A stretch of 64,000 nt of DNA from an uncultured Gammaproteobacteria bacterium (GTDB lineage: Bacteria; Patescibacteriota; Microgenomatia; Levybacterales; GWA1-39-11): assembly GCA_964425075.1 (NCBI GenBank), contig CAYRKM010000001.1, forward strand, positions 266,484-330,483, given 5' to 3'. The position numbers and the translations under genes are program-made. The notes below the pieces were generated by a model. The model was given only the letters and a program-made list of their open reading frames with translations, had not been told where the DNA came from and searched no databases. Below are positions 1,590 to 59,309 of this stretch, piece by piece (the stretch's first letter is position 1; every line of letters begins with the position of its first letter).

Positions 1590-2594
1590 TTGTTGGTGTT
1601 TTGTACTACAATGAAATTGATGAATGCTCTTGTTGTAGGCTCTTCTTTAATTGACCTCTTTATTTCGCTTCAAAAAAATGAAGATTTAAAAATTAAAGAT
1701 AATGCTATCTCCTTTACCTTGGGAGATAAAATTCCAATTGATATACAAACTCTTACTCTTGGCGGAAATGGTGTAAATGTCACCTCAGCACTACAAAAAT
1801 TACAAATTAATACCTCTTTTTACACGTATTTAGGAACGGATGTGCTATCAAACCATATAAAAACCCTCTTGCAAAAAGAGGACATAACACTTCATATTGA
1901 GGGAGAGGAAACAATCACAGGATCTTTATCCATTATTCTTAACCTAAATTACGACAGGATAATTTTCTCCCACCACAATGAATTTACTCATTCCTTTGAT
2001 TCCTCAAAAATAGATGTAAGACCTGATGTAATTTTTCTTACTTCAATTGGTAAAGATTGGACAGATGCGTACAGTAAGGTTTTGTCTTATGCAAAAGACA
2101 ATTCAATTCCCATCGCCTTCTCTCCTGGAAGCCAACAAATGAGTGATATGAATGAAGTTTTTATCAAAACAGTTCATCAATCGAAAATGCTTTTTTGCAA
2201 TATGCAGGAAGCTCAAGAAATAAATAAAGCGCTTACGGGAAACGCAATTGATAATGCACGTGAATTACTATTAAATATAAAAAATAACGGCTTTGATCTT
2301 CTTTCAATTACAGATGGAAAAAATGGCGCGTATGCAGTGGGAAGTGGCGAGGTAGTATATAAAATAGAGTCAACTGAACCTGATGGTAAAGAAAAAACAG
2401 GAGCCGGAGACTCTTATGCAGGCGGTTTTTTAGCCGGATACATGCACAAAAAACCCATTGAAACATGCATGAAGTGGGGAGTGCTAAATGCAGTTGGAGA
2501 AATGAGACAAATTGGCTCAAGAACTGGTCAATTAACCCTTTCTGAAATGGAAGAAAAGGTAGAAAAAACAACTTTTCAAATACAAACATTATGA
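1590..2594 (+). CDS. PfkB-family carbohydrate kinase (ribokinase-like)
   Basis: C-terminal GAGDSYAGGFLAGY motif (PfkB signature 2). Co-localised with rpiB/rpe. Confidence 0.7.
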   Translation: MLVFCTTMKLMNALVVGSSLIDLFISLQKNEDLKIKDNAISFTLGDKIPIDIQTLTLGGNGVNVTSALQKLQINTSFYTYLGTDVLSNHIKTLLQKEDITLHIEGEETITGSLSIILNLNYDRIIFSHHNEFTHSFDSSKIDVRPDVIFLTSIGKDWTDAYSKVLSYAKDNSIPIAFSPGSQQMSDMNEVFIKTVHQSKMLFCNMQEAQEINKALTGNAIDNARELLLNIKNNGFDLLSITDGKNGAYAVGSGEVVYKIESTEPDGKEKTGAGDSYAGGFLAGYMHKKPIETCMKWGVLNAVGEMRQIGSRTGQLTLSEMEEKVEKTTFQIQTL

Positions 2595-3037
2595 ACATAT
2601 ATATAGCGTCAGATCATGCAGGTTTTGAATTTAAAGAGCATATAAAAACATTGCTTGAAAAATGGGGACATAAAGTAACTGACTCCGGAGCTTTTGAATT
2701 AAATTTAGAGGATGACTACCCAGATTTTATTAAAGACGCGGCAAGAAAAGTTACCAGTGACCCTCAATCTAGAGGGATTGTTTTGGGAAGATCTGGTGCG
2801 GGAGAGTGTATGGTCGCAAATAAAATAAAGGGGGCAAGAGCTTTTCTTGCTGTTAACGAGCATAACGTCAGACTAGCAAGAGAACATAATGATGCAAACA
2901 TAATGTCTCTTGGCTCAGAAATTATTCAAGAAAACGAAATCGAAAATCTCGTTAAGCTTTTCTTGGAGACTCCCTTTTCAAATGCAACGCGCCACATCAG
3001 AAGAATTGAAAAAATCAAACAAATAGAAAATGAGTGA
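2591..3037 (+). CDS. rpiB: Ribose-5-phosphate isomerase B (RpiB/LacAB family)
   Basis: MNIYIASDHAGFEFKE...GRSGAGECMVANK pattern typical of RpiB. 4-bp overlap with the upstream kinase. Confidence 0.8.
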   Translation: MNIYIASDHAGFEFKEHIKTLLEKWGHKVTDSGAFELNLEDDYPDFIKDAARKVTSDPQSRGIVLGRSGAGECMVANKIKGARAFLAVNEHNVRLAREHNDANIMSLGSEIIQENEIENLVKLFLETPFSNATRHIRRIEKIKQIENE

Positions 3038-3662
3038 AATAATTCCGGGAATTTTAGAGGCAGAATGGGATGAGATTGAGAAAAAACTTGAACTCATAAA
3101 ACCGTTTACCAATACTGTTCATATTGACATTATCGACGGAAAATTTACTGACAATCTAACCCTTCTTGACCCCTCACCTTTTCAAAAATATTCTAAAGAC
3201 TTTTTCTTTGAACTTCATATGATGGTTAAGGAACCAGTTAATTATTTAGAGTCTTGGGCAAATGCTGGTTTTAAAAGATTTATTGGACATATTGAAAAAA
3301 TGTCTGATATTAATGCTTTTATAACGGGGGGAAGAAGATATGGAGAGATAGGTCTTGCAATTGATGGACCAACTGATATTGGTATTTTAGATGGAATTAA
3401 CCTGAACGATCTGGATTGTTTGTTGGTAATGACAATAAAAGCAGGAGCATCAGGACAAAAATTTCAACCTGAATTACTTGAAAAAGTAAGAGTTTTAAGG
3501 GGGAAAACTGCTATTCCGATTGAGGTTGATGGGGGAATAAATGACATGACGGTTATTAATGCAAAAGAAAGTGGAGCTACCAGATTTGTTGCAAATAGCT
3601 TTCTTTTTAAAGCCAATGCGCAAGAACAGTACGAAAAATTAGAATCCCTCCTTGAAGAATAG
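3030..3662 (+). CDS. rpe: Ribulose-phosphate 3-epimerase
   Basis: HIDIIDGKF (HxDxMDGxF-like) and MV.EP motifs; size 210 aa. Confidence 0.8.
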   Translation: MSEIIPGILEAEWDEIEKKLELIKPFTNTVHIDIIDGKFTDNLTLLDPSPFQKYSKDFFFELHMMVKEPVNYLESWANAGFKRFIGHIEKMSDINAFITGGRRYGEIGLAIDGPTDIGILDGINLNDLDCLLVMTIKAGASGQKFQPELLEKVRVLRGKTAIPIEVDGGINDMTVINAKESGATRFVANSFLFKANAQEQYEKLESLLEE

Positions 3663-3719
3663 TAGGATGGGACGCCCGCCGAGCTTGGCTCGACGGGACG
3701 TCCCGAGATGGATGCCTCC

Positions 3720-4538
3720 TTACTGGAACGGGAGAGGGACGGACTTGTTAGTCCCTGGAAACCCCCCACAGTGGTTGGCTGCCACGTCCAACCCAACGTC
3801 GCCGTTCTTCAAGCAGAGTACCGCAAGGTACTGCTCGCCTGAATCGAGAGTTGGACTGACGAAGGTGAATCGCCACACACCATCAGAGGTGGTCCCAGAG
3901 AACAGACTTCCCGTCACCTCCTGGGCGTCGAGACCTACGTAGATCTCGGCACCGGCACTTACCATCGCCGTCGGCGAGGAAGTTATCCGAACATCCAGGG
4001 TAACAGTGTTACCCTGGCAGGGCCTCACCGAGCTGAGGCTGACGCTGTTGTCCCCGACGACACGAGGCAAAGTACTCACGGGAGAACTGACGTCATACGT
4101 TTCAGCGGGTCCCGCCACACATGGCGTCGGGGTCGCCGTGGCTGTTGCCGTCGCGGTCGCTGTGACTGTCGCCGTAGCCGTCGCGGTCGCTGTGGCCGTA
4201 GCAGTAGCTGTCGCCGTAGCCGTGGCGGTTGCCGTGGCAGTAGCCGTAGCGGTCGGGGTGGATGTAGCTGTCACGGTGACAGTTGGCGCGCTCTCGCACG
4301 CCTTAACCCACGCCAACCAGCCTCTGTAGAACGGCAACGCCTGCTTGTACCGAGGGTTTGACTCGGCAAAGCGTATCATGCCCTCCACGAATGACTTCTG
4401 TTGTCGGAGAACGTAGGAGGACGGACATCCTCCCTTTGCCTCCGCTTGCGGCGGGTTTGACACCCGCCAGACTGTGGCAAGGCTTGCCACGAGCACCACC
4501 ACCAGGACAAGTCCTGGCACAAAGGCCTTTTTCATCAA
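3720..4538 (-). CDS. Secreted hypothetical protein with long (Thr-Ala)n repeat linker, encoded in a high-GC island
   Basis: 272-aa ORF with signal-peptide-like N-terminus (MMKKAFVPGLVLVVVLVASLA). GGAGG SD 8 nt upstream. ~25x TA dipeptide repeat encoded by a GCN-GTN tandem repeat. Local GC about 60-65% versus about 35% in the flanks. Confidence 0.6.
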   Translation of the reverse strand: MMKKAFVPGLVLVVVLVASLATVWRVSNPPQAEAKGGCPSSYVLRQQKSFVEGMIRFAESNPRYKQALPFYRGWLAWVKACESAPTVTVTATSTPTATATATATATATATATATATATATATATVTATATATATATPTPCVAGPAETYDVSSPVSTLPRVVGDNSVSLSSVRPCQGNTVTLDVRITSSPTAMVSAGAEIYVGLDAQEVTGSLFSGTTSDGVWRFTFVSPTLDSGEQYLAVLCLKNGDVGLDVAANHCGGFPGTNKSVPLPFQ

Positions 4539-4678
4539 CCTCCTCCAATCCTATTAGCATCCAAATTCTCAAAGAACAACTCGCACCCTCAATCGGGCAT
4601 GAAGTCGCCCTAAGAGAATACTTGTTAATGCAATTATACTAAAAATTCCGAAACATTAACAACTACAGGATGAAACTA

Positions 4679-5547: not shown

Positions 5548-7068
5548 TTACTCAATGCTTCTTGGTCTATATTGTAAAGCCTCTAAGATATGCTGAGATA
5601 AAATTTCTTTTGAATTCTCAAGATCCGCAATGGTTCTTGAGACCTTAAGCACTTTATTAAAAGAACGAGCTGATAAATTAAGGCTTGCCATAGCCTGTTT
5701 CATGATAGTTTTTGCCTCATCTGTTATGTTGAGAAGTTCTTTTAATTCTTTTTGGTTCATTTCTGAGTTCATGATGGTTTTTTTACCCTTAAAACGTTTT
5801 TCTTGATTGCTTAATGCTTTTATTACTCTTTTCCTAATCTCCTCGGATGTTTCCGACCTTTCATTATCTGCCAACAACTTTTCTACTTTTACTGCCGGCA
5901 CGTCAATATGAATATCTATTCTATCAAGAAGTGGTCCCGAAAGCCTTTTTTGATATCGTAATATTTGGCTTGTAGAGCAAGTGCAAGTTCTTGTAGTGTC
6001 TCCATAAAATCCGCATGGACAAGGATTGGCTGCTGCAACAAGCATAAAACGTGAAGGAAAACTTACCCTCTCACGAGCCCTTGAGATACTTACTATCCCG
6101 TCCTCCAATGGTTGACGAAGCGCCTCTAGAACATACCTTGAGAATTCTGGAAATTCATCCAAAAACAATACGCCACGATGCGCAAGAGAAATTTCCCCGG
6201 GGCGAGGATTTGCACTTCCACCCACTAACCCGACATGGGAAGTTGTGTGATGAGGACTTCTAAAAGGTCTTGTTGTAATTATAGATTTTCCATTCAAAAG
6301 ACCAGAAATGCTATAAATTTTTGTAACCTCTAAAGCCTCTGCAAAAGAGAGTGGTGGAAGAATAGAGGGAATTGTTTTGGCTATTAAAGTTTTTCCTGCT
6401 CCTGGCGGACCTTTAAGTAAAATATTGTGTCCCCCTGCAACCGCCACCTCAACCGCGCGCTTTACATATGCTTGGCCTTTGATATCTGACATATCATGCT
6501 CGTATTCCTCATCTCTTAACGCATCTTTAAATTCAATTGGGGTAAGTGGCTCTATCAAGCTTTGTCCTGAAAAATGAAGGAATAGCTGTTTTAAGTTTTC
6601 TACAGGATAAAGAGTTACTCCCGCAACAACTGAAGCCTCATGTTCATTTTCTTTCGGTATAAAAACATTTTTTATTTTTTTCTCGCGGGCAAGCAAGACC
6701 ACAGGCAAGACTCCTTTTGTTTTTCTTAATTTTCCATTTAAAGATAACTCTCCCACAAAAAGACACTCGTCCGTATTAAAAACAAGTTGGCCTGATGATA
6801 AAAGAATGGAAACAGCAATTGGCACATCAAATGAGGGCCCTTCTTTAGGAAGATCCCCAGGTGCAAGATTTACAGTTACTCGTTTTGTGGGAAAGTCAGC
6901 GCCGGAATTTTTAATTGCAGAGCGTACTCTTTCTTTTGATTCCTCAACTGCCTTATCGGGAAGACCAACTATAGTAAAAGAGGGGAGACCATTTAGTATA
7001 TCTGTTTCAACCTCAACCAATACACCATCTAGACCAACGACGGTGGACGAGAGAACTCTTGAAACCAT
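5548..7068 (-). CDS. comM: YifB/ComM-family Mg-chelatase-like AAA+ ATPase
   Basis: N-terminal Lon-like domain, Walker A GPPGAGKT, Walker B LFLDE, C-terminal CxxC cluster; 506 aa. Confidence 0.8.
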   Translation of the reverse strand: MVSRVLSSTVVGLDGVLVEVETDILNGLPSFTIVGLPDKAVEESKERVRSAIKNSGADFPTKRVTVNLAPGDLPKEGPSFDVPIAVSILLSSGQLVFNTDECLFVGELSLNGKLRKTKGVLPVVLLAREKKIKNVFIPKENEHEASVVAGVTLYPVENLKQLFLHFSGQSLIEPLTPIEFKDALRDEEYEHDMSDIKGQAYVKRAVEVAVAGGHNILLKGPPGAGKTLIAKTIPSILPPLSFAEALEVTKIYSISGLLNGKSIITTRPFRSPHHTTSHVGLVGGSANPRPGEISLAHRGVLFLDEFPEFSRYVLEALRQPLEDGIVSISRARERVSFPSRFMLVAAANPCPCGFYGDTTRTCTCSTSQILRYQKRLSGPLLDRIDIHIDVPAVKVEKLLADNERSETSEEIRKRVIKALSNQEKRFKGKKTIMNSEMNQKELKELLNITDEAKTIMKQAMASLNLSARSFNKVLKVSRTIADLENSKEILSQHILEALQYRPRSIE

Positions 7069-10323: not shown

Positions 10324-11064
10324 ATGGGTTATTTCGGGAAAATTGAACTTAAAAATGAAGCTATCGCACTCCACCAAAAAGGCCTTTCCTATAACGAAAT
10401 TCTGAAAACAATTCCTGTTTCCAAAGACACATTAAGTCGGTGGTGCAGAGAAATTGAACTAACAAATGATCAAAAAGCAAGATTAATGACAAATAAAGAG
10501 AACGGCCAGAGAAAGGGCTCGCTTGTAGCAGCTGGTAATAAAAGGAGACAAAGAATAGAAAAAATTAAGAACATAAATATCTTGGCTAGAAAGGACATAG
10601 GTAAAATTTCAAAGAGAGATAATTTCATTTTTGGCCTAGCTCTTTATGCCGGAGAGGGAGGCAAAACCGATGGAAAAGGTACCTTCACCAACTCGAATCC
10701 CTTTTTTATTAAATTTATGTGTAAATGGTTAATGGAATATTGTGATTTAAATGCTAATAATCTAAAGGGGGCACTATGGATTCATGAAGAAAACGATGAA
10801 AAAGAAGCAAAAATATTTTGGTCAAATTTAACTGAAATTCCTATTATAAATTTCCATAAATCATACGTCGTTAAAAACAAAAATGGAGTTTATTATCGGA
10901 AAAATGTTCATCCATTTGGAGTTTTTTCTATACGATTTTACAATAGTGATTTACAAAGGAAAATAATGGGCTGGATTTCAGCTTTCTTAGATGATAAAAT
11001 AACTTCCACTCAAGAAATTGAGTCGATCCGCGATAGCTCAATGGTAGAGCAGGAAACTGTATAA
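10324..11064 (+). CDS. Hypothetical protein with N-terminal HTH and a single degenerate LAGLIDADG-like motif (possible free-standing homing-endonuclease relative)
   Basis: HTH-like LSYNEILKTIPVSKDTLSRWCRE. Motif FIFGLALYAGEGG resembles LAGLIDADG with a terminal acidic residue. Family assignment by eye only. Confidence 0.3.
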   Translation: MGYFGKIELKNEAIALHQKGLSYNEILKTIPVSKDTLSRWCREIELTNDQKARLMTNKENGQRKGSLVAAGNKRRQRIEKIKNINILARKDIGKISKRDNFIFGLALYAGEGGKTDGKGTFTNSNPFFIKFMCKWLMEYCDLNANNLKGALWIHEENDEKEAKIFWSNLTEIPIINFHKSYVVKNKNGVYYRKNVHPFGVFSIRFYNSDLQRKIMGWISAFLDDKITSTQEIESIRDSSMVEQETV

Positions 11065-11204
11065 CAATGCAGCCTCCGAGGGAAACATCGGAGTGAATAA
11101 CTGGGCTAATTCGGGGAAACCCTGAGACAATTGAAGGGCAATCCCGAGCTAAATTCCGCCAAATGGCGAGATAAATGTGTAGAGACTATATACCCAGGAC
11201 CTAA

Positions 11205-11305
11205 TTCGCCAAGATGGTGAAATGGTCATAAGATAGTCCAAGCCTTTTAGTAATAAAAGGGTCCTTGTAATTTCAAGGTTCTAGGTTCGAATCCTAGTCG
11301 CGGAG
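11205..11305 (+). tRNA. tRNA-like element with canonical T-arm and 3' acceptor strand. Full cloverleaf not resolved (possible intron-containing, aberrant or remnant tRNA)
   Basis: CTAGG-TTCGAAT-CCTAG T-arm at 11281-11297, followed by 7-nt acceptor strand TCGCGGA plus discriminator G. Upstream TTCGCCA pairs 6/7. A D-arm-like ATGG-TGAAATGG-TCAT with a GG pair is present. Total length about 101 nt is too long for a standard tRNA and the anticodon arm is non-canonical. Confidence 0.35.
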
Positions 11306-11345
11306 CAAATTGACACCAAGGTCTAAAAAGACTATAAATTAGTTA

Positions 11346-12092
11346 ATGAAAAAGCTGATTCCCGTTATAGTAATTTTGCTGATTATTCTTGTAGCAGGCT
11401 TTCTTTTCGTAAGTAACTCCTTTTCACCCCTAACTCCTGAGTCGAAACAAGTGAATAGAGACATAGTTAATGCCTCTTTTTCAAATCCTACTAAAAGTGC
11501 TCATTATGAAAGCAATACCCCCGAACACGGCTCAACCCTAGCGGGTGTACCAATAAATGTAGTTATAAATTTTAATTTTGACCTGGCCGCACCATCTGAA
11601 ATCAAAATTGAAAAAGACGGAGAAGAATATGGAAGTGGCAATACAGAAATTGATGAGAATAAATTGTCTATGAGAAGAGGGATGAGAAGTGATTCCCCTA
11701 ATGGAATTTATACTGTGAATTACAAGGCGTGCTGGCCAGACGGCAGTTGCCATGACGGAAGTTTTCAGTTTGCAATAGACAGAACACGAGAATCTTCATA
11801 CGAAGATCTGACTGGACAAAAGGAAATTACAATCGAAATGAGTGAAATACAGTTTAAATCTATGAATTTGAAAATCAGCAAAGGTACTAAAGTAACTTGG
11901 ACCAATAATGATGATGTTGAACATTATGTTAATACGGATTCTCACCCAGCACACACATACTTCCCTGTACAAAACTCTAAAGCACTAAAGACTGGGGACA
12001 CTTATTCTGCTATATTCACCGATGTGGGAATTTACCCCTATCACTGCTCGGCTCATGCGGACTCCATGATTGGCTCAATACTAGTACAGTAA
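11346..12092 (+). CDS. Membrane-anchored copper-binding protein: CopC-like domain fused to a cupredoxin (type 1 Cu) domain
   Basis: N-terminal TM. Middle region has CopC-like beta pattern. C-terminal ...YHCSAHADSMIG (Cys-x2-His-x3-Met) with upstream His typical of the cupredoxin ligand set. Confidence 0.5.
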   Translation: MKKLIPVIVILLIILVAGFLFVSNSFSPLTPESKQVNRDIVNASFSNPTKSAHYESNTPEHGSTLAGVPINVVINFNFDLAAPSEIKIEKDGEEYGSGNTEIDENKLSMRRGMRSDSPNGIYTVNYKACWPDGSCHDGSFQFAIDRTRESSYEDLTGQKEITIEMSEIQFKSMNLKISKGTKVTWTNNDDVEHYVNTDSHPAHTYFPVQNSKALKTGDTYSAIFTDVGIYPYHCSAHADSMIGSILVQ

Positions 12093-12304: not shown

Positions 12305-13579
12305 TTGTATACTATATATCTAATGAGAAAAAAGAGTAAGTCTTCTAAAAATTGGTTGTGGGGTGTAGTTTTACTTTTTTCCCTCTCCCTTACCCTTATA
12401 GTCTTCTATTCCACAAGCATAGATGGTGATCTCAGATCTGAAGCAAGTACAGTTCAGCCTGTGGGTCAGACAGGAAATTGGAATCTCATCTTTAATGACG
12501 AATTTAATGGGTCAGCGCTTGATACGACCAAATGGGTTACTTGCTATTCATATAGTCTAAGTGATAATGGATGCGGGCACAGCAATGGAGAACTACAATA
12601 TTATCTACCAAGAAATGTTACCGTTAGTTATGGCACAGTCAAATTGAGAGGAAAAAAGGAAACCTACGTTGCTCCTGATGGCAAAACCTACAACTATACA
12701 TCAGGAATGATCTCAACAGGCAGAAATAAATTGGATACGTCAATGCCCGCCAAATTCAAATATCAATACGGGTATGCCGAAATGCGGGCAAAAGTACCAA
12801 AGGGGAAGGGGTATTGGCCGGCATTCTGGATGTTACCATTTAGTGATACAGATCCCAACAAATGGCCGCCAGAGATTGATGCTATGGAAATTCTAGGAGA
12901 CAAGATTTCTACAGTATATATGTCGCACCATCACAAAGACTTGTCAGGAAATCTTGTCACGGATACAAAAAGCTGGGTTGGTTCGGATTTTTCTACAGGT
13001 TTTCATGTCTACGCAGTTGATTGGGAACCAAATGCTATCAGGTGGTATGTTGACGGGGTAGAGAGGCGAGTAGCATATACAGATACTACATGGATTCCGG
13101 CAGAGCCAATGCATCTTTTAGCAAATTTGGCAATCGGCGGAGATTGGCCGGGATCACCGGATAGTACAACATCTTTCCCCAGAAATTTTGAAATTGACTA
13201 TGTTCGTGTTTGGCAAAAAGCGCCTGACGCAACAAGTCCTACTCCAACACCCACTTCCGCTGTCACCCCAACACCCACCCCAACACCTACCCCCTCAGAC
13301 ACAACGCCTCCTAGTGTTGCAATTACGTCTCCTCTTAATAATGCTACTGTGCGGCGTTGGTGGACTACGAATATTACCGCTTCCGCCTCAGACAATGTCA
13401 GCGTAAAAAAGGTGGAGTTTTATGTAGGCAATATTCTCAAGTGCACAGACACCACATCTCCTTATTCTTGCGCTTGGTCAGTTCCTTATACCACCTCTTC
13501 TTATTATTTAAAAGCCAAAGCCTATGACGCAGCAGGCAATAATGCTGAATCTACTCAAATAACTGTCTTTGCTAAATAA
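12305..13579 (+). CDS. Secreted glycoside hydrolase family 16 (beta-glucanase/laminarinase-like) with Pro/Thr linker and C-terminal Ig-like domain
   Basis: GH16 catalytic motif EIDAMEILG (ExDxxE). N-terminal TM/signal. PTPTPT linker. Confidence 0.7.
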   Translation: MYTIYLMRKKSKSSKNWLWGVVLLFSLSLTLIVFYSTSIDGDLRSEASTVQPVGQTGNWNLIFNDEFNGSALDTTKWVTCYSYSLSDNGCGHSNGELQYYLPRNVTVSYGTVKLRGKKETYVAPDGKTYNYTSGMISTGRNKLDTSMPAKFKYQYGYAEMRAKVPKGKGYWPAFWMLPFSDTDPNKWPPEIDAMEILGDKISTVYMSHHHKDLSGNLVTDTKSWVGSDFSTGFHVYAVDWEPNAIRWYVDGVERRVAYTDTTWIPAEPMHLLANLAIGGDWPGSPDSTTSFPRNFEIDYVRVWQKAPDATSPTPTPTSAVTPTPTPTPTPSDTTPPSVAITSPLNNATVRRWWTTNITASASDNVSVKKVEFYVGNILKCTDTTSPYSCAWSVPYTTSSYYLKAKAYDAAGNNAESTQITVFAK

Positions 13580-58944: not shown

Positions 58945-58950
58945 AATTTG

Positions 58951-59309
58951 TGGAGATGGGGGGTTTTGAGCCCCCGTCCAAAAATCATCCATAAAAACAT
59001 CTACAAGCGTAGTTCCCTCTAATTCTTGCCATATCTAACCGTTGGAACAAAGAAAATATGACAAAGGCCTAATACGAAACGGGCTGGCCAGCTCCGTTAA
59101 GTTTTTCTAGCAGGTTAATGCCTGTATCTTTGTGCTAGAAGCAAGTTGATACAAACAGGTCTTAGGTATTAAGCAAACGCAAAGTTTGGTTTAAAACCAA
59201 GTCCGCTAAATTGTGATTTAGCATGTATTTTTGAACCTCTTTTACGACTTTGGTTCATTGTCGGCTTGCAGTTTTTAAGGTACAATTCTTGTCGATGCAG
59301 TGCATCCCC
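58951..59309 (-). ncRNA. ssrA: tmRNA (SsrA), standard one-piece form
   Basis: Minus-strand 5' GGGGATGCACTGCATCGACAAG... 3' ...GGACGGGGGCTCAAAACCCCCCATCTCCA. Acceptor stem carries the G3:U70 wobble (AlaRS identity) and discriminator A. T-arm GGGGG/CCCCC. Putative tag ORF GCT AAA TCA ... GCG TTT GCT TAA (AKSQFSGLGFKPNFAFA). Adjacent to smpB. Confidence 0.75.

Follow-up and report, generated by a model that had tools for sequence, protein, structure and literature searches.

A GC-rich cassette for a predicted secreted protein in a conserved slot of AT-rich Levybacteria genomes

What keeps a single gene far above the GC content of the AT-rich genome around it? We address this question in a 64,000-nucleotide stretch of DNA from an uncultured bacterium that GTDB places in the Levybacterales (assembly GCA_964425075.1, contig CAYRKM010000001.1, positions 266,484 to 330,483; hereafter the window). 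The original prediction for this DNA, made from its letters, marked a GC-rich island at 3663-4625 with one minus-strand gene for a secreted Thr-Ala-repeat protein, and named recent acquisition from a high-GC donor, a host-interaction or surface protein, or a chimeric contig as candidate explanations. Compositional outliers are usually read as recent transfer or contamination, and genomes assembled from metagenomes are often stripped of them; this island is neither. We propose, at a probability of about 0.6, that it is a resident cassette, passed on vertically, for a hypervariable secreted protein, and that selection on the transcript or GC-biased recombination actively keeps it GC-rich.

The island and its counterparts in related genomes

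Composition sets the island apart by every measure applied. Its GC content is 0.598 against 0.379 in the remaining window, with maximum-likelihood change points at 3665 and 4527; the highest 300-nucleotide value is 0.663 inside the island and 0.547 elsewhere in the 64 kb; and the tetranucleotide z-score, which had been suggested as a check, places the island 13 standard deviations above same-size windows (z = 13). As had been claimed, the GC content jumps exactly at the rpe stop codon (3662), from ~0.35 to 0.55-0.69. The other end of the predicted island has to be moved: GC content drops back between 4530 and 4625, and the strongly GC-rich block stops at ~4527, just within the coding sequence. 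The block consists of the coding sequence and a 3' hairpin, and its sharp borders match their ends; the leader (4539-4625) has a GC content of 0.46, and positions 4626-4678 have one of 0.26. Two Logan contigs, located by exact-protein look-up and assembled independently from separate sequencing runs (SRR14271365 and SRR14271372), match the window at 100% identity along stretches of 6339 and 3511 bases that span both junctions.

The locus reads PfkB kinase, rpiB, rpe, island, a serine hydrolase gene of the Beta-lactamase2 family (hereafter bla), ComM/YifB, DnaG and RpoD. Named homologs of bla belong to Candidatus Levybacteria, a group of the candidate phyla radiation (CPR, or Patescibacteria). 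The order RpoD-DnaG-(ComM)-bla-slot-rpe-rpiB-PfkB-PBP1 is kept in relatives whose bla is 62-87% identical to that of the window. We label these relatives L005 to L025 and give bla identity to the window in brackets; alleles are few, and several are truncated.

GC-rich genes occupy the same slot in four of these low-GC relatives. L005 (87%) encodes a 338-aa protein, P0030, at a GC content of 0.58 and a third-position GC content (GC3) of 0.61, between flanks at GC3 0.26-0.32. In L019 (79%) the gene is truncated, with over 300 aa present and GC3 0.71, and L017 (82%) has a truncated allele along which GC content climbs to 0.59. The commonly sampled lineage L024/L025 (62%) carries a 377-aa protein with GC 0.56 and GC3 0.61, against 0.30 in its bla. 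The contig of L018 (80%) ends within the conserved leader, and L021 (69%) has the conserved leader followed by a truncated, T/A/P-rich secreted protein with GC3 0.41, against 0.42 in bla. The slot is empty in L020 alone (79%; JGI 3300009868, Ga0130016_10036378, site at 4150-4160), where bla and rpe are convergent with stop codons 4 nucleotides apart and where there is neither an island gene nor a ComM gene between DnaG and bla. Another gene fills it in L022/L023 (64%), a 361-aa SLT lytic transglycosylase (L022 5875-6960, L023 2446-3531) of ordinary composition (GC 0.37, GC3 0.24) that begins 16 nucleotides after bla and lacks the leader. Scans of GTDB-representative and JGI data anchored on bla returned only loci whose bla is ~40% identical; these have no island and are uninformative for this locus.

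Beside the slot, rpiB (window 2591-3037) is 72% identical to that of L022, 54% to that of L005 and 38% to that of L020. Its phylogeny is discordant with those of bla, ComM and rpe, which indicates that the rpiB region has been exchanged among Levybacteria; its GC3 is normal.

Outside the slot the protein has almost no kin. We searched 1.84 billion protein representatives by HMMER, with a profile that reduces the signal peptide and repeat mostly to insert columns, and retrieved P0030 as the sole real homolog, itself a slot protein, together with distant Ig-like repeat proteins. A word-index search of 5.8 billion sequences with a repeat-free query of the N- and C-terminal parts gave nothing, and phage records, plasmid records and IMG/VR viral contigs hold no homolog of either globular domain. 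When the whole protein was used for a homology search, all 29 matches were spurious, low-complexity TA alignments, and we rejected them.

These comparisons do not support a recent acquisition from a high-GC donor. The homology searches returned no donor-side homolog, and homologs of the same GC in related low-GC genomes, named beforehand as the observation that would speak against transfer, were looked for and found: diverged homologous or analogous genes with the same GC excess share the slot in L005, L017, L019 and L024, and the insertion is therefore not a recent foreign one. The island resembles a classical acquired genomic islet in GC, GC3 and tetranucleotide usage off the host and in its abrupt boundaries. 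It departs from one in that several diverged relatives carry it at that very site, with regulatory ends that are conserved and native; of the features used to recognise horizontal islands, the deviating composition is present, whereas a tip-restricted distribution, mobility borders and donor homologs are absent. Between bla and rpe we found no integrase, no other mobility gene and no significant flanking repeat, and no tRNA lies near the island. One candidate border signature, a near-direct 11-nucleotide repeat (TACGAAAAATT at 3630-3640 and TACTAAAAATT at 4637-4647), has a copy just outside each island border; it was rejected as AT-rich, matching at 10 of 11 positions, at chance level, and overlapping the -10 box. 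An integron cassette was rejected as well: by eye the 3' hairpin lacks GTTRRRY/RYYYAAC core sites, and the neighbourhood holds no integrase.

Alleles in the slot are mosaic and diverge fast. P0030 and the window protein have the signal-peptide and cleavage region in common, and their C-domains are 46% identical in one comparison and 36% in another; C-domain identity to the window is 35% for L019 and 20% for L024. Between L005 and L019 the C-domains are ~80% identical by eye, and the whole aligned gene pair 62%. The N-terminal regions sort differently: the window and L019 share a 'type A' region (~40% identical by eye), L005 and L017 share a 'type B' unrelated to it, and L021 and L024 have a third type. 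The middle module is a TA linker in the window and a K319L-like PKD domain in L005 and L019 (E 1e-16 to 1e-18). In the bla tree the window groups with L005 (bootstrap 83%) and the island-bearing genomes form a clade (95.5%), which dates the island to the base of that clade or below it. The partitions by N-type, middle module and C-domain conflict with one another and with this tree, and nonsynonymous divergence (dN) is 0.32-0.81 for the island gene against 0.09-0.14 for bla; the gene is therefore both fast-evolving and recombining.

A further comparison concerns synonymous sites. The proportion of synonymous differences (pS) in bla is 0.66-0.89, nearly all pairs being saturated, which corresponds to a synonymous divergence (dS) of 1.6 or more, up to saturation. 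For L005 and L019, pS is 0.64 in the island gene and 0.73 in bla, so that the synonymous sites of the island have turned over with GC3 still high. An excess of GC3, at 0.60-0.71, is seen in four lineages. A two-state amelioration model started at GC3 0.95 predicts at most 0.44-0.51 for the shallowest pair (window and L005) and at most 0.38 for deeper splits.

The cassette from promoter to terminal hairpin

The island's only credible gene is the minus-strand open reading frame (ORF) 3720..4538, which encodes 272 aa from a TTG start at 4538, in agreement with the single gene that had been described; an ATG at 4535, the start chosen by the Logan gene caller, gives 271 aa. In an exact look-up the 271-aa ATG-start product was matched and the 272-aa TTG-start product was not. 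Two further ORFs were rejected as genes: the plus-strand ORF 4006..4329 (107 aa, VAVAVA...) arises from the antisense strand of the TA repeat, and the minus-strand ORF 4102-4299 (65 aa) from another reading frame of it.

Codon usage is indeed foreign to the rest of the window. Whether or not the repeat is counted, the gene has a GC3 of 0.67-0.68; its neighbours have 0.24-0.28, and 28 long host ORFs 0.302 +/- 0.033 (maximum 0.372). Among the 53 ORFs of the window the gene is the sole GC3 outlier. Its preferred codons (ACG/ACC, GCG/GCC, CCG and GTG) resemble those of an organism of ~60% GC; island alleles encode Thr, Pro and Ser preferentially with NCG codons, which the host seldom uses, and among third-position bases A shows the strongest depletion (0.14, against a host value of 0.34). 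Amino-acid composition accounts for only part of the GC excess, because the same proteins recoded with host codon usage reach a GC content of 0.47-0.49 and a GC3 of 0.30-0.32. Nor does the type of linker explain it alone. A secreted GH16 glycoside hydrolase, encoded elsewhere in the window (12305-13579, plus strand), combines a Big_7 Ig domain with a linker rich in T and P and was used as an internal control; it has a local GC content of ~0.5 that stems from its amino-acid composition, with host-type codons: its linker has a GC3 of 0.35 and 1 of 31 codons ending in G, against 0.64 and 20 of 53 in the island linker.

A sigma-70-like promoter (TTGTTA, 18 nucleotides, TATAAT; 4633..4662, minus strand) is predicted by a promoter scan with 10 of 12 matches, in low-GC DNA just downstream of bla. 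TATAAT and the upstream GTAGTT(G/A)TT are common to the window, L005, L017, L018 and L019, and TATAAT is found in L021 and L024 too. The ~90-nucleotide leader that follows is almost unchanged in the same five genomes, recognisable in L021 and partly so in L024, and is much better kept across alleles than the coding sequence. RNAalifold predicts a hairpin of 22 pairs near the likely transcript start (4565..4619, minus strand; -26.4 kcal/mol over four alleles), nearly invariant and with one compensatory pair; in L021 the stem GGGC/GCCC is replaced by GGGTG/CACCC. Rfam has no family for the leader, and at a permissive threshold it returned only chance matches inside the repeat. The distal leader (4539..4564, minus strand) comprises the segment UGGAUGCU and then the Shine-Dalgarno sequence GGAGGAGG (4539-4546), directly upstream of the start, where a GGAGG ribosome-binding site had been noted.

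The start codon and the predicted signal peptide (residues 1-34) occupy 4437..4538 on the minus strand. The n/h/c layout of the signal peptide that had been claimed can be read from the sequence. It ends ...VSNPPQAEA|KGG, and the motif ...(V/T)SxPxxAEA is common to the window protein, P0030, L017 and L019; with this conserved AxA site, cleavage after AEA is predicted, as is secretion. The N-domain (residues 35-85; 4284..4436, minus strand) is predicted by single-sequence AlphaFold2 to form the 'type A' helical hairpin, with helices at 40-59 and 61-81 at a predicted local distance difference test score (pLDDT) of 80-93; the full protein, modelled in the same way, scores 49 and is poor outside these helices. 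Cys38 and Cys81 bracket the hairpin, which bears out the two-cysteine N-domain of the original prediction, and the C-terminal part has four further cysteines, for a total of six.

The linker that follows (53 aa; 4125..4283, minus strand) is a (Thr-X)27 run, of equal length in the window and both Logan contigs. It is less regular than had been described: it holds 20 TA dipeptides instead of about 25, and the near-perfect GCC-GTN-GCG-GTC repeat reported for its DNA is an imperfect tandem repeat of 6, 12 and 24 nucleotides, with 69-87% matches by Tandem Repeats Finder and with Thr and Ala codons that use all four third bases. These match values and mixed codons do not fit the near-perfect short repeat that marks a simple-sequence contingency locus. 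In L021 a gene for a PMT_2-family glycosyltransferase, similar to protein O-mannosyltransferases, lies between DnaG and ComM (1797-3401); it may be relevant if Thr-rich linkers are O-glycosylated.

The C-terminal region (residues 139-272; 3723..4124, minus strand) contains the four remaining cysteines. A C-terminal domain had been foreseen at 110 aa; the domain stands and its size does not, the region measuring ~134 aa with an Ig-like core of ~100 aa. The core is modelled as an Ig-like beta-sandwich whose fold matches E-set, filamin, carbohydrate-binding-module and invasin Ig domains. The window protein has no Pfam or NCBIfam match, and a sequence search of the PDB gave noise only. Peptidase_A4 matches the C-domain of L019 at 24.3 bits (cut-off 22.3) and that of P0030 at 17.3 bits, below the cut-off, and we take this as a match at the level of the fold; matches of the relatives to curated models are otherwise limited to PKD in the middle module. 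The window allele has no catalytic signature or domain and no recognisable anchor. The L024 allele (5896-7029) looks like a lipoprotein, with a lipobox-like N-terminus (...LLLASC), a T/P/S/A linker ~150 aa long, a beta-rich C-domain that contains Cys and, at the C-terminus, a hydrophobic transmembrane segment followed by RKKS. Its true start is probably a TTG ~80 nucleotides downstream of the called one, the called N-terminus being a translation of the leader.

A surface role is plausible because of the signal peptide, the flexible T/A/P linker, the Ig-like C-domain, the PKD domains of relatives and the extreme divergence. Most likely the product is a cell-surface or extracellular binding or spacer protein under diversifying pressure. 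The host-interaction or surface protein of the original prediction thus fits the architecture and the mosaic divergence, with the function itself putative.

Downstream of the TAA stop codon (3720..3722, minus strand), the 3' untranslated region (UTR) opens with GGAGGCAUCCA (3709..3719, minus strand), which is kept in L005 and complementary to the distal leader. A GC-rich hairpin of 16-17 bp without a U-tract then lies between the convergent island gene and rpe (3669..3704, minus strand). It folds at -35.4 kcal/mol (z -5.9; z -4.1 for the plus-strand fold), and a scan for terminators with a T-tail does not call it. The orthologous hairpin of L005 carries compensatory changes (GAGC/GCUC to GAGU/ACUC, and GGGACG/CGUCCC to GGGGUG/CGCCCC), and L024 has an analogous one. 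It is likely to be a terminator, possibly bidirectional, or a 3' stabiliser.

Leader and tail are predicted to pair. The leader segment 4547-4564 forms a duplex with 3709-3719 (both minus strand) of -20.9 kcal/mol, a value reached by 1.7% of shuffles. In L024 a different yet complementary leader-tail pair (~5945-5975 with 7027-7045) reaches -23.9 kcal/mol, matched by 0 of 1000 shuffles, while pairs formed across the clades, between the window clade and L024, reach only -12.9 and -14.9 kcal/mol. This complementarity suggests that the 5' and 3' UTRs pair, or else that the cassette ends in terminal inverted repeats.

A proposed maintenance of composition and its rivals

We propose that the cassette, in its fixed slot between the class-A beta-lactamase-like serine hydrolase gene and rpe, is a resident unit made up of a promoter of its own, a structured 5' leader that is conserved, a single modular secreted-protein gene and a GC-rich 3' hairpin. 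Its modules (signal peptide, a small disulfide-bracketed N-domain, a Thr/Ala/Pro linker or PKD domain, and an Ig-like C-domain) are shuffled between lineages, and the protein evolves several-fold faster than its neighbours. GC-richness would then be a maintained property of the synonymous sites of this gene family and no donor leftover. In L022 an SLT gene of normal GC takes the slot, so the excess goes with the gene family and not with its position.

Our preferred cause is selection on the nucleic acid, which would favour a GC-rich, structured and long-lived transcript bracketed by 5' and 3' hairpins, with 5'-3' UTR pairing as a possible addition to its stability. We favour selection on the transcript because the excess goes with this gene family, because it is confined to the transcribed coding sequence and terminator, because the transcript has a hairpin at each end, conserved at the 5' end and strong at the 3' end, and because leader-tail complementarity persists with differing sequences in the window clade and L024. 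GC-biased repair during frequent recombination between alleles could be an alternative or an extra contributor, and such conversion fits because the alleles are mosaic. A recombination-associated rise of GC3 in bacteria, the GC-biased gene conversion hypothesis, was reportedly proposed by Lassalle and colleagues in 2015. The island is like such cases in being a mosaic gene with GC3 above the genome on an AT-biased mutational background; it differs in that a single gene stands ~35 points above background while its phylogenetically discordant neighbour rpiB is not enriched.

Several observations weigh against this reading. The other genes of the window, presumably well-expressed ones included, reach a GC3 of at most 0.37, so that GC enrichment for mRNA stability is no general strategy here. 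The normal GC3 of rpiB, despite its discordant phylogeny, counts against GC-biased conversion, and the GC3 differences attributed to such conversion in bacteria are said to amount to a few points, genome-wide, and not to ~35. Maintenance is not universal either, since the partial allele of L021 (113 codons) shows no excess over its bla. L020, with its empty site, is nested within the island-bearing clade at a bootstrap of only 57.5%. The model of the C-domain is of medium confidence (pLDDT 72), from a shallow alignment that includes distant Ig-like repeats, and the leader-tail pairing rests on two independent cases, that of L005 being not significant. It is a tentative further step, for which we would offer slightly less than even odds, that Levybacteria hold a gene family with its own compositional equilibrium, ~35 GC3 points above an AT-rich genome and past synonymous saturation, by a gene-specific process new for the CPR, whether selection on mRNA structure or intense GC-biased conversion.

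The main rival is that the cassette is replaced recurrently by homologous recombination, with alleles drawn from an external GC-rich pool in which GC-richness and divergence arise. The conserved leader and signal-peptide end and the 3' hairpin end would serve as anchors, and the alleles might come from the bacterium that hosts these epibionts, or else from a GC-rich phage or plasmid not yet sampled. Much of the evidence can be accommodated in this way: codon preferences like those of a ~60% GC organism, sharp GC boundaries at the coding sequence plus hairpin, and mosaic alleles whose modules are distributed at odds with the bla tree. L021 without GC3 excess, L022 with an unrelated gene and L020 with none fit a pattern of sporadic import. 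The short inverted complementarity at both ends could anchor recombination, and ComM, a natural-transformation helicase, is encoded two genes upstream; DNA uptake is plausible for CPR bacteria, and secreted proteins of GC-rich phyla typically combine T/P/A linkers with PKD and Ig modules. Divergence could have built up in an unsampled GC-rich pool, a further point against our own proposal, and such a pool would explain the high GC3 too. Such a pool has nevertheless left no outside homolog of either globular domain in the protein, phage, plasmid and IMG/VR searches, although sampling of GC-rich phyla far exceeds that of Levybacteria. The signal-peptide region, GC-rich and kept in the window, L005, L017 and L019, points to a common, Levybacteria-specific 5' end, and the L005-L019 pS of 0.64 in the island is about as deep as that of bla, as expected under co-divergence. 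We regard recurrent replacement as unlikely, and as the alternative that has to be taken most seriously.

Less probable still is a single ancient transfer from a GC-rich donor into the ancestor of these Levybacteria, with amelioration incomplete. The foreign composition and codon usage, the loss or lack of the gene in L020 and the host-like GC3 of L021, as though fully ameliorated, can be read in this way. Resident decay should, however, have brought GC3 to the modelled values of at most 0.44-0.51, or 0.38 at deeper splits, yet four lineages stand at 0.60-0.71 in a clade whose flanking synonymous sites are saturated, and the island's own pS of 0.64 has come without loss of GC3. Nonsynonymous sites are also faster than those of the neighbours, so mutation bias should act quickly, and no donor homologs were found. 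The same absence of amelioration despite saturated divergence sets the island apart from classical islets.

Diversity-generating retroelements (DGRs) are common in CPR bacteria, and targeted hypermutation, through their adenine mutagenesis or through conversion from silent cassettes, could diversify the gene and skew its composition. The variable locus nearest to the island in behaviour is vls of Borrelia burgdorferi sensu lato (vlsE plus silent cassettes), whose G+C content is 49.1% against 28.6% for the genome; this excess is conserved across species and has been read as selectively maintained and linked to gene conversion (PMC11499132). The likeness lies in a variable surface-protein locus far above the GC of an AT-rich genome, which indicates that conversion-driven loci can be GC-rich in such genomes, and the hypervariability of our gene and its depletion of third-position A are in keeping with hypermutation. 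In vls, however, strong GC skew of the coding strand (~0.52) and G-runs go together with segmental gene conversion and silent cassettes arrayed alongside (PMC11499132), whereas the island has a skew of 0.012, no enrichment of G-runs (12, against 11 C-runs) and an unrelated protein; since skew and G-run enrichment are lacking, as are silent cassettes within the 64 kb, it is not a member of the vls system. Both the DGR-target and the silent-cassette readings were rejected because, within the 64 kb of this 835-kb genome, no island segment recurs as a second copy or as a template-like repeat (best blastn match 22 nucleotides, E 0.49). In addition, the GC excess spans the whole coding sequence and not a variable region of 100-150 bp, the three assemblies of the organism are identical, and no reverse transcriptase is among the called genes of related contigs, the window's other ORFs not having been scanned for one. 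We consider hypermutation of either kind very improbable. The suggested assembly chimera, a fragment of a GC-rich organism mis-joined to a low-GC contig, has the abrupt switch of composition in its favour and is practically excluded, because two independent assemblies from different runs match both junctions exactly, the low/high/low order of GC recurs, with diverged sequence, in at least three further contigs whose runs are unrelated, and promoter, leader and hairpin are kept across the junctions in relatives.

Other variable repeat proteins and further features of the window

Within the CPR the closest precedent is a hypervariable Pro/Thr-rich gene with PTD repeats in a Gracilibacteria (BD1-5) genome, for which the portion of the report consulted infers a surface or interface role (Sieber et al. 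2019, PMC6851277). Both cases concern one unusual, variable gene with a short-period repeat in a CPR bacterium. The PTD repeat, as described in that portion, varies within the population and fragments the assembly, whereas the repeat of the window is stable in three assemblies and whole modules vary between lineages; the same portion of the text (PMC6851277) mentions no compositional island, conserved slot or Ig-like domain. The general layout of our protein, with signal peptide, small domain, Thr/Pro/Ala linker and beta-sandwich, is that of secreted proteins with PT or TA linkers and PKD or Ig-like domains, from which it differs in N- and C-domains that have no Pfam or NCBIfam match and in having neither a catalytic domain nor an anchor.

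These findings bear on how compositional outliers are handled, as cleaning of genome bins by GC or tetranucleotide content may delete real genes like this one. Should selection or biased conversion turn out to maintain the GC excess, the island would offer a natural system of ~1 kb that has many alleles, stays at one genomic position and comes with an internal codon control; it could be used to measure selection or conversion against AT-biased mutation in bacteria. It would also add a second case, with a different mechanism, of a variable antigen that is GC-rich in an AT-rich genome, beside vls of Borrelia. The gene is a candidate host-interaction or surface determinant for Levybacteria, an uncultivated CPR group.

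Some unrelated features of the window deserve mention. A group I intron (Rfam, 63 bits) interrupts a tRNA gene at 11026-11310 on the plus strand; the intron spans ~11049-11255, and with these positions removed ARAGORN calls tRNA-Gln(TTG). The program finds no uninterrupted tRNA in the whole 64 kb. A 246-aa ORF (10324..11064) that runs into the 5' half of the tRNA has no Pfam match and contains a LAGLIDADG-like 'GLALYAGEGG' motif. Directly downstream of the intron-containing tRNA lies a gene for a protein with CopC and cupredoxin (plastocyanin/azurin-like) domains (11346-12092, plus strand). Finally, the window carries a tmRNA gene at 58948-59309 on the minus strand (123 bits), with the tag peptide AKSQFSGLGFKPNFAFA.

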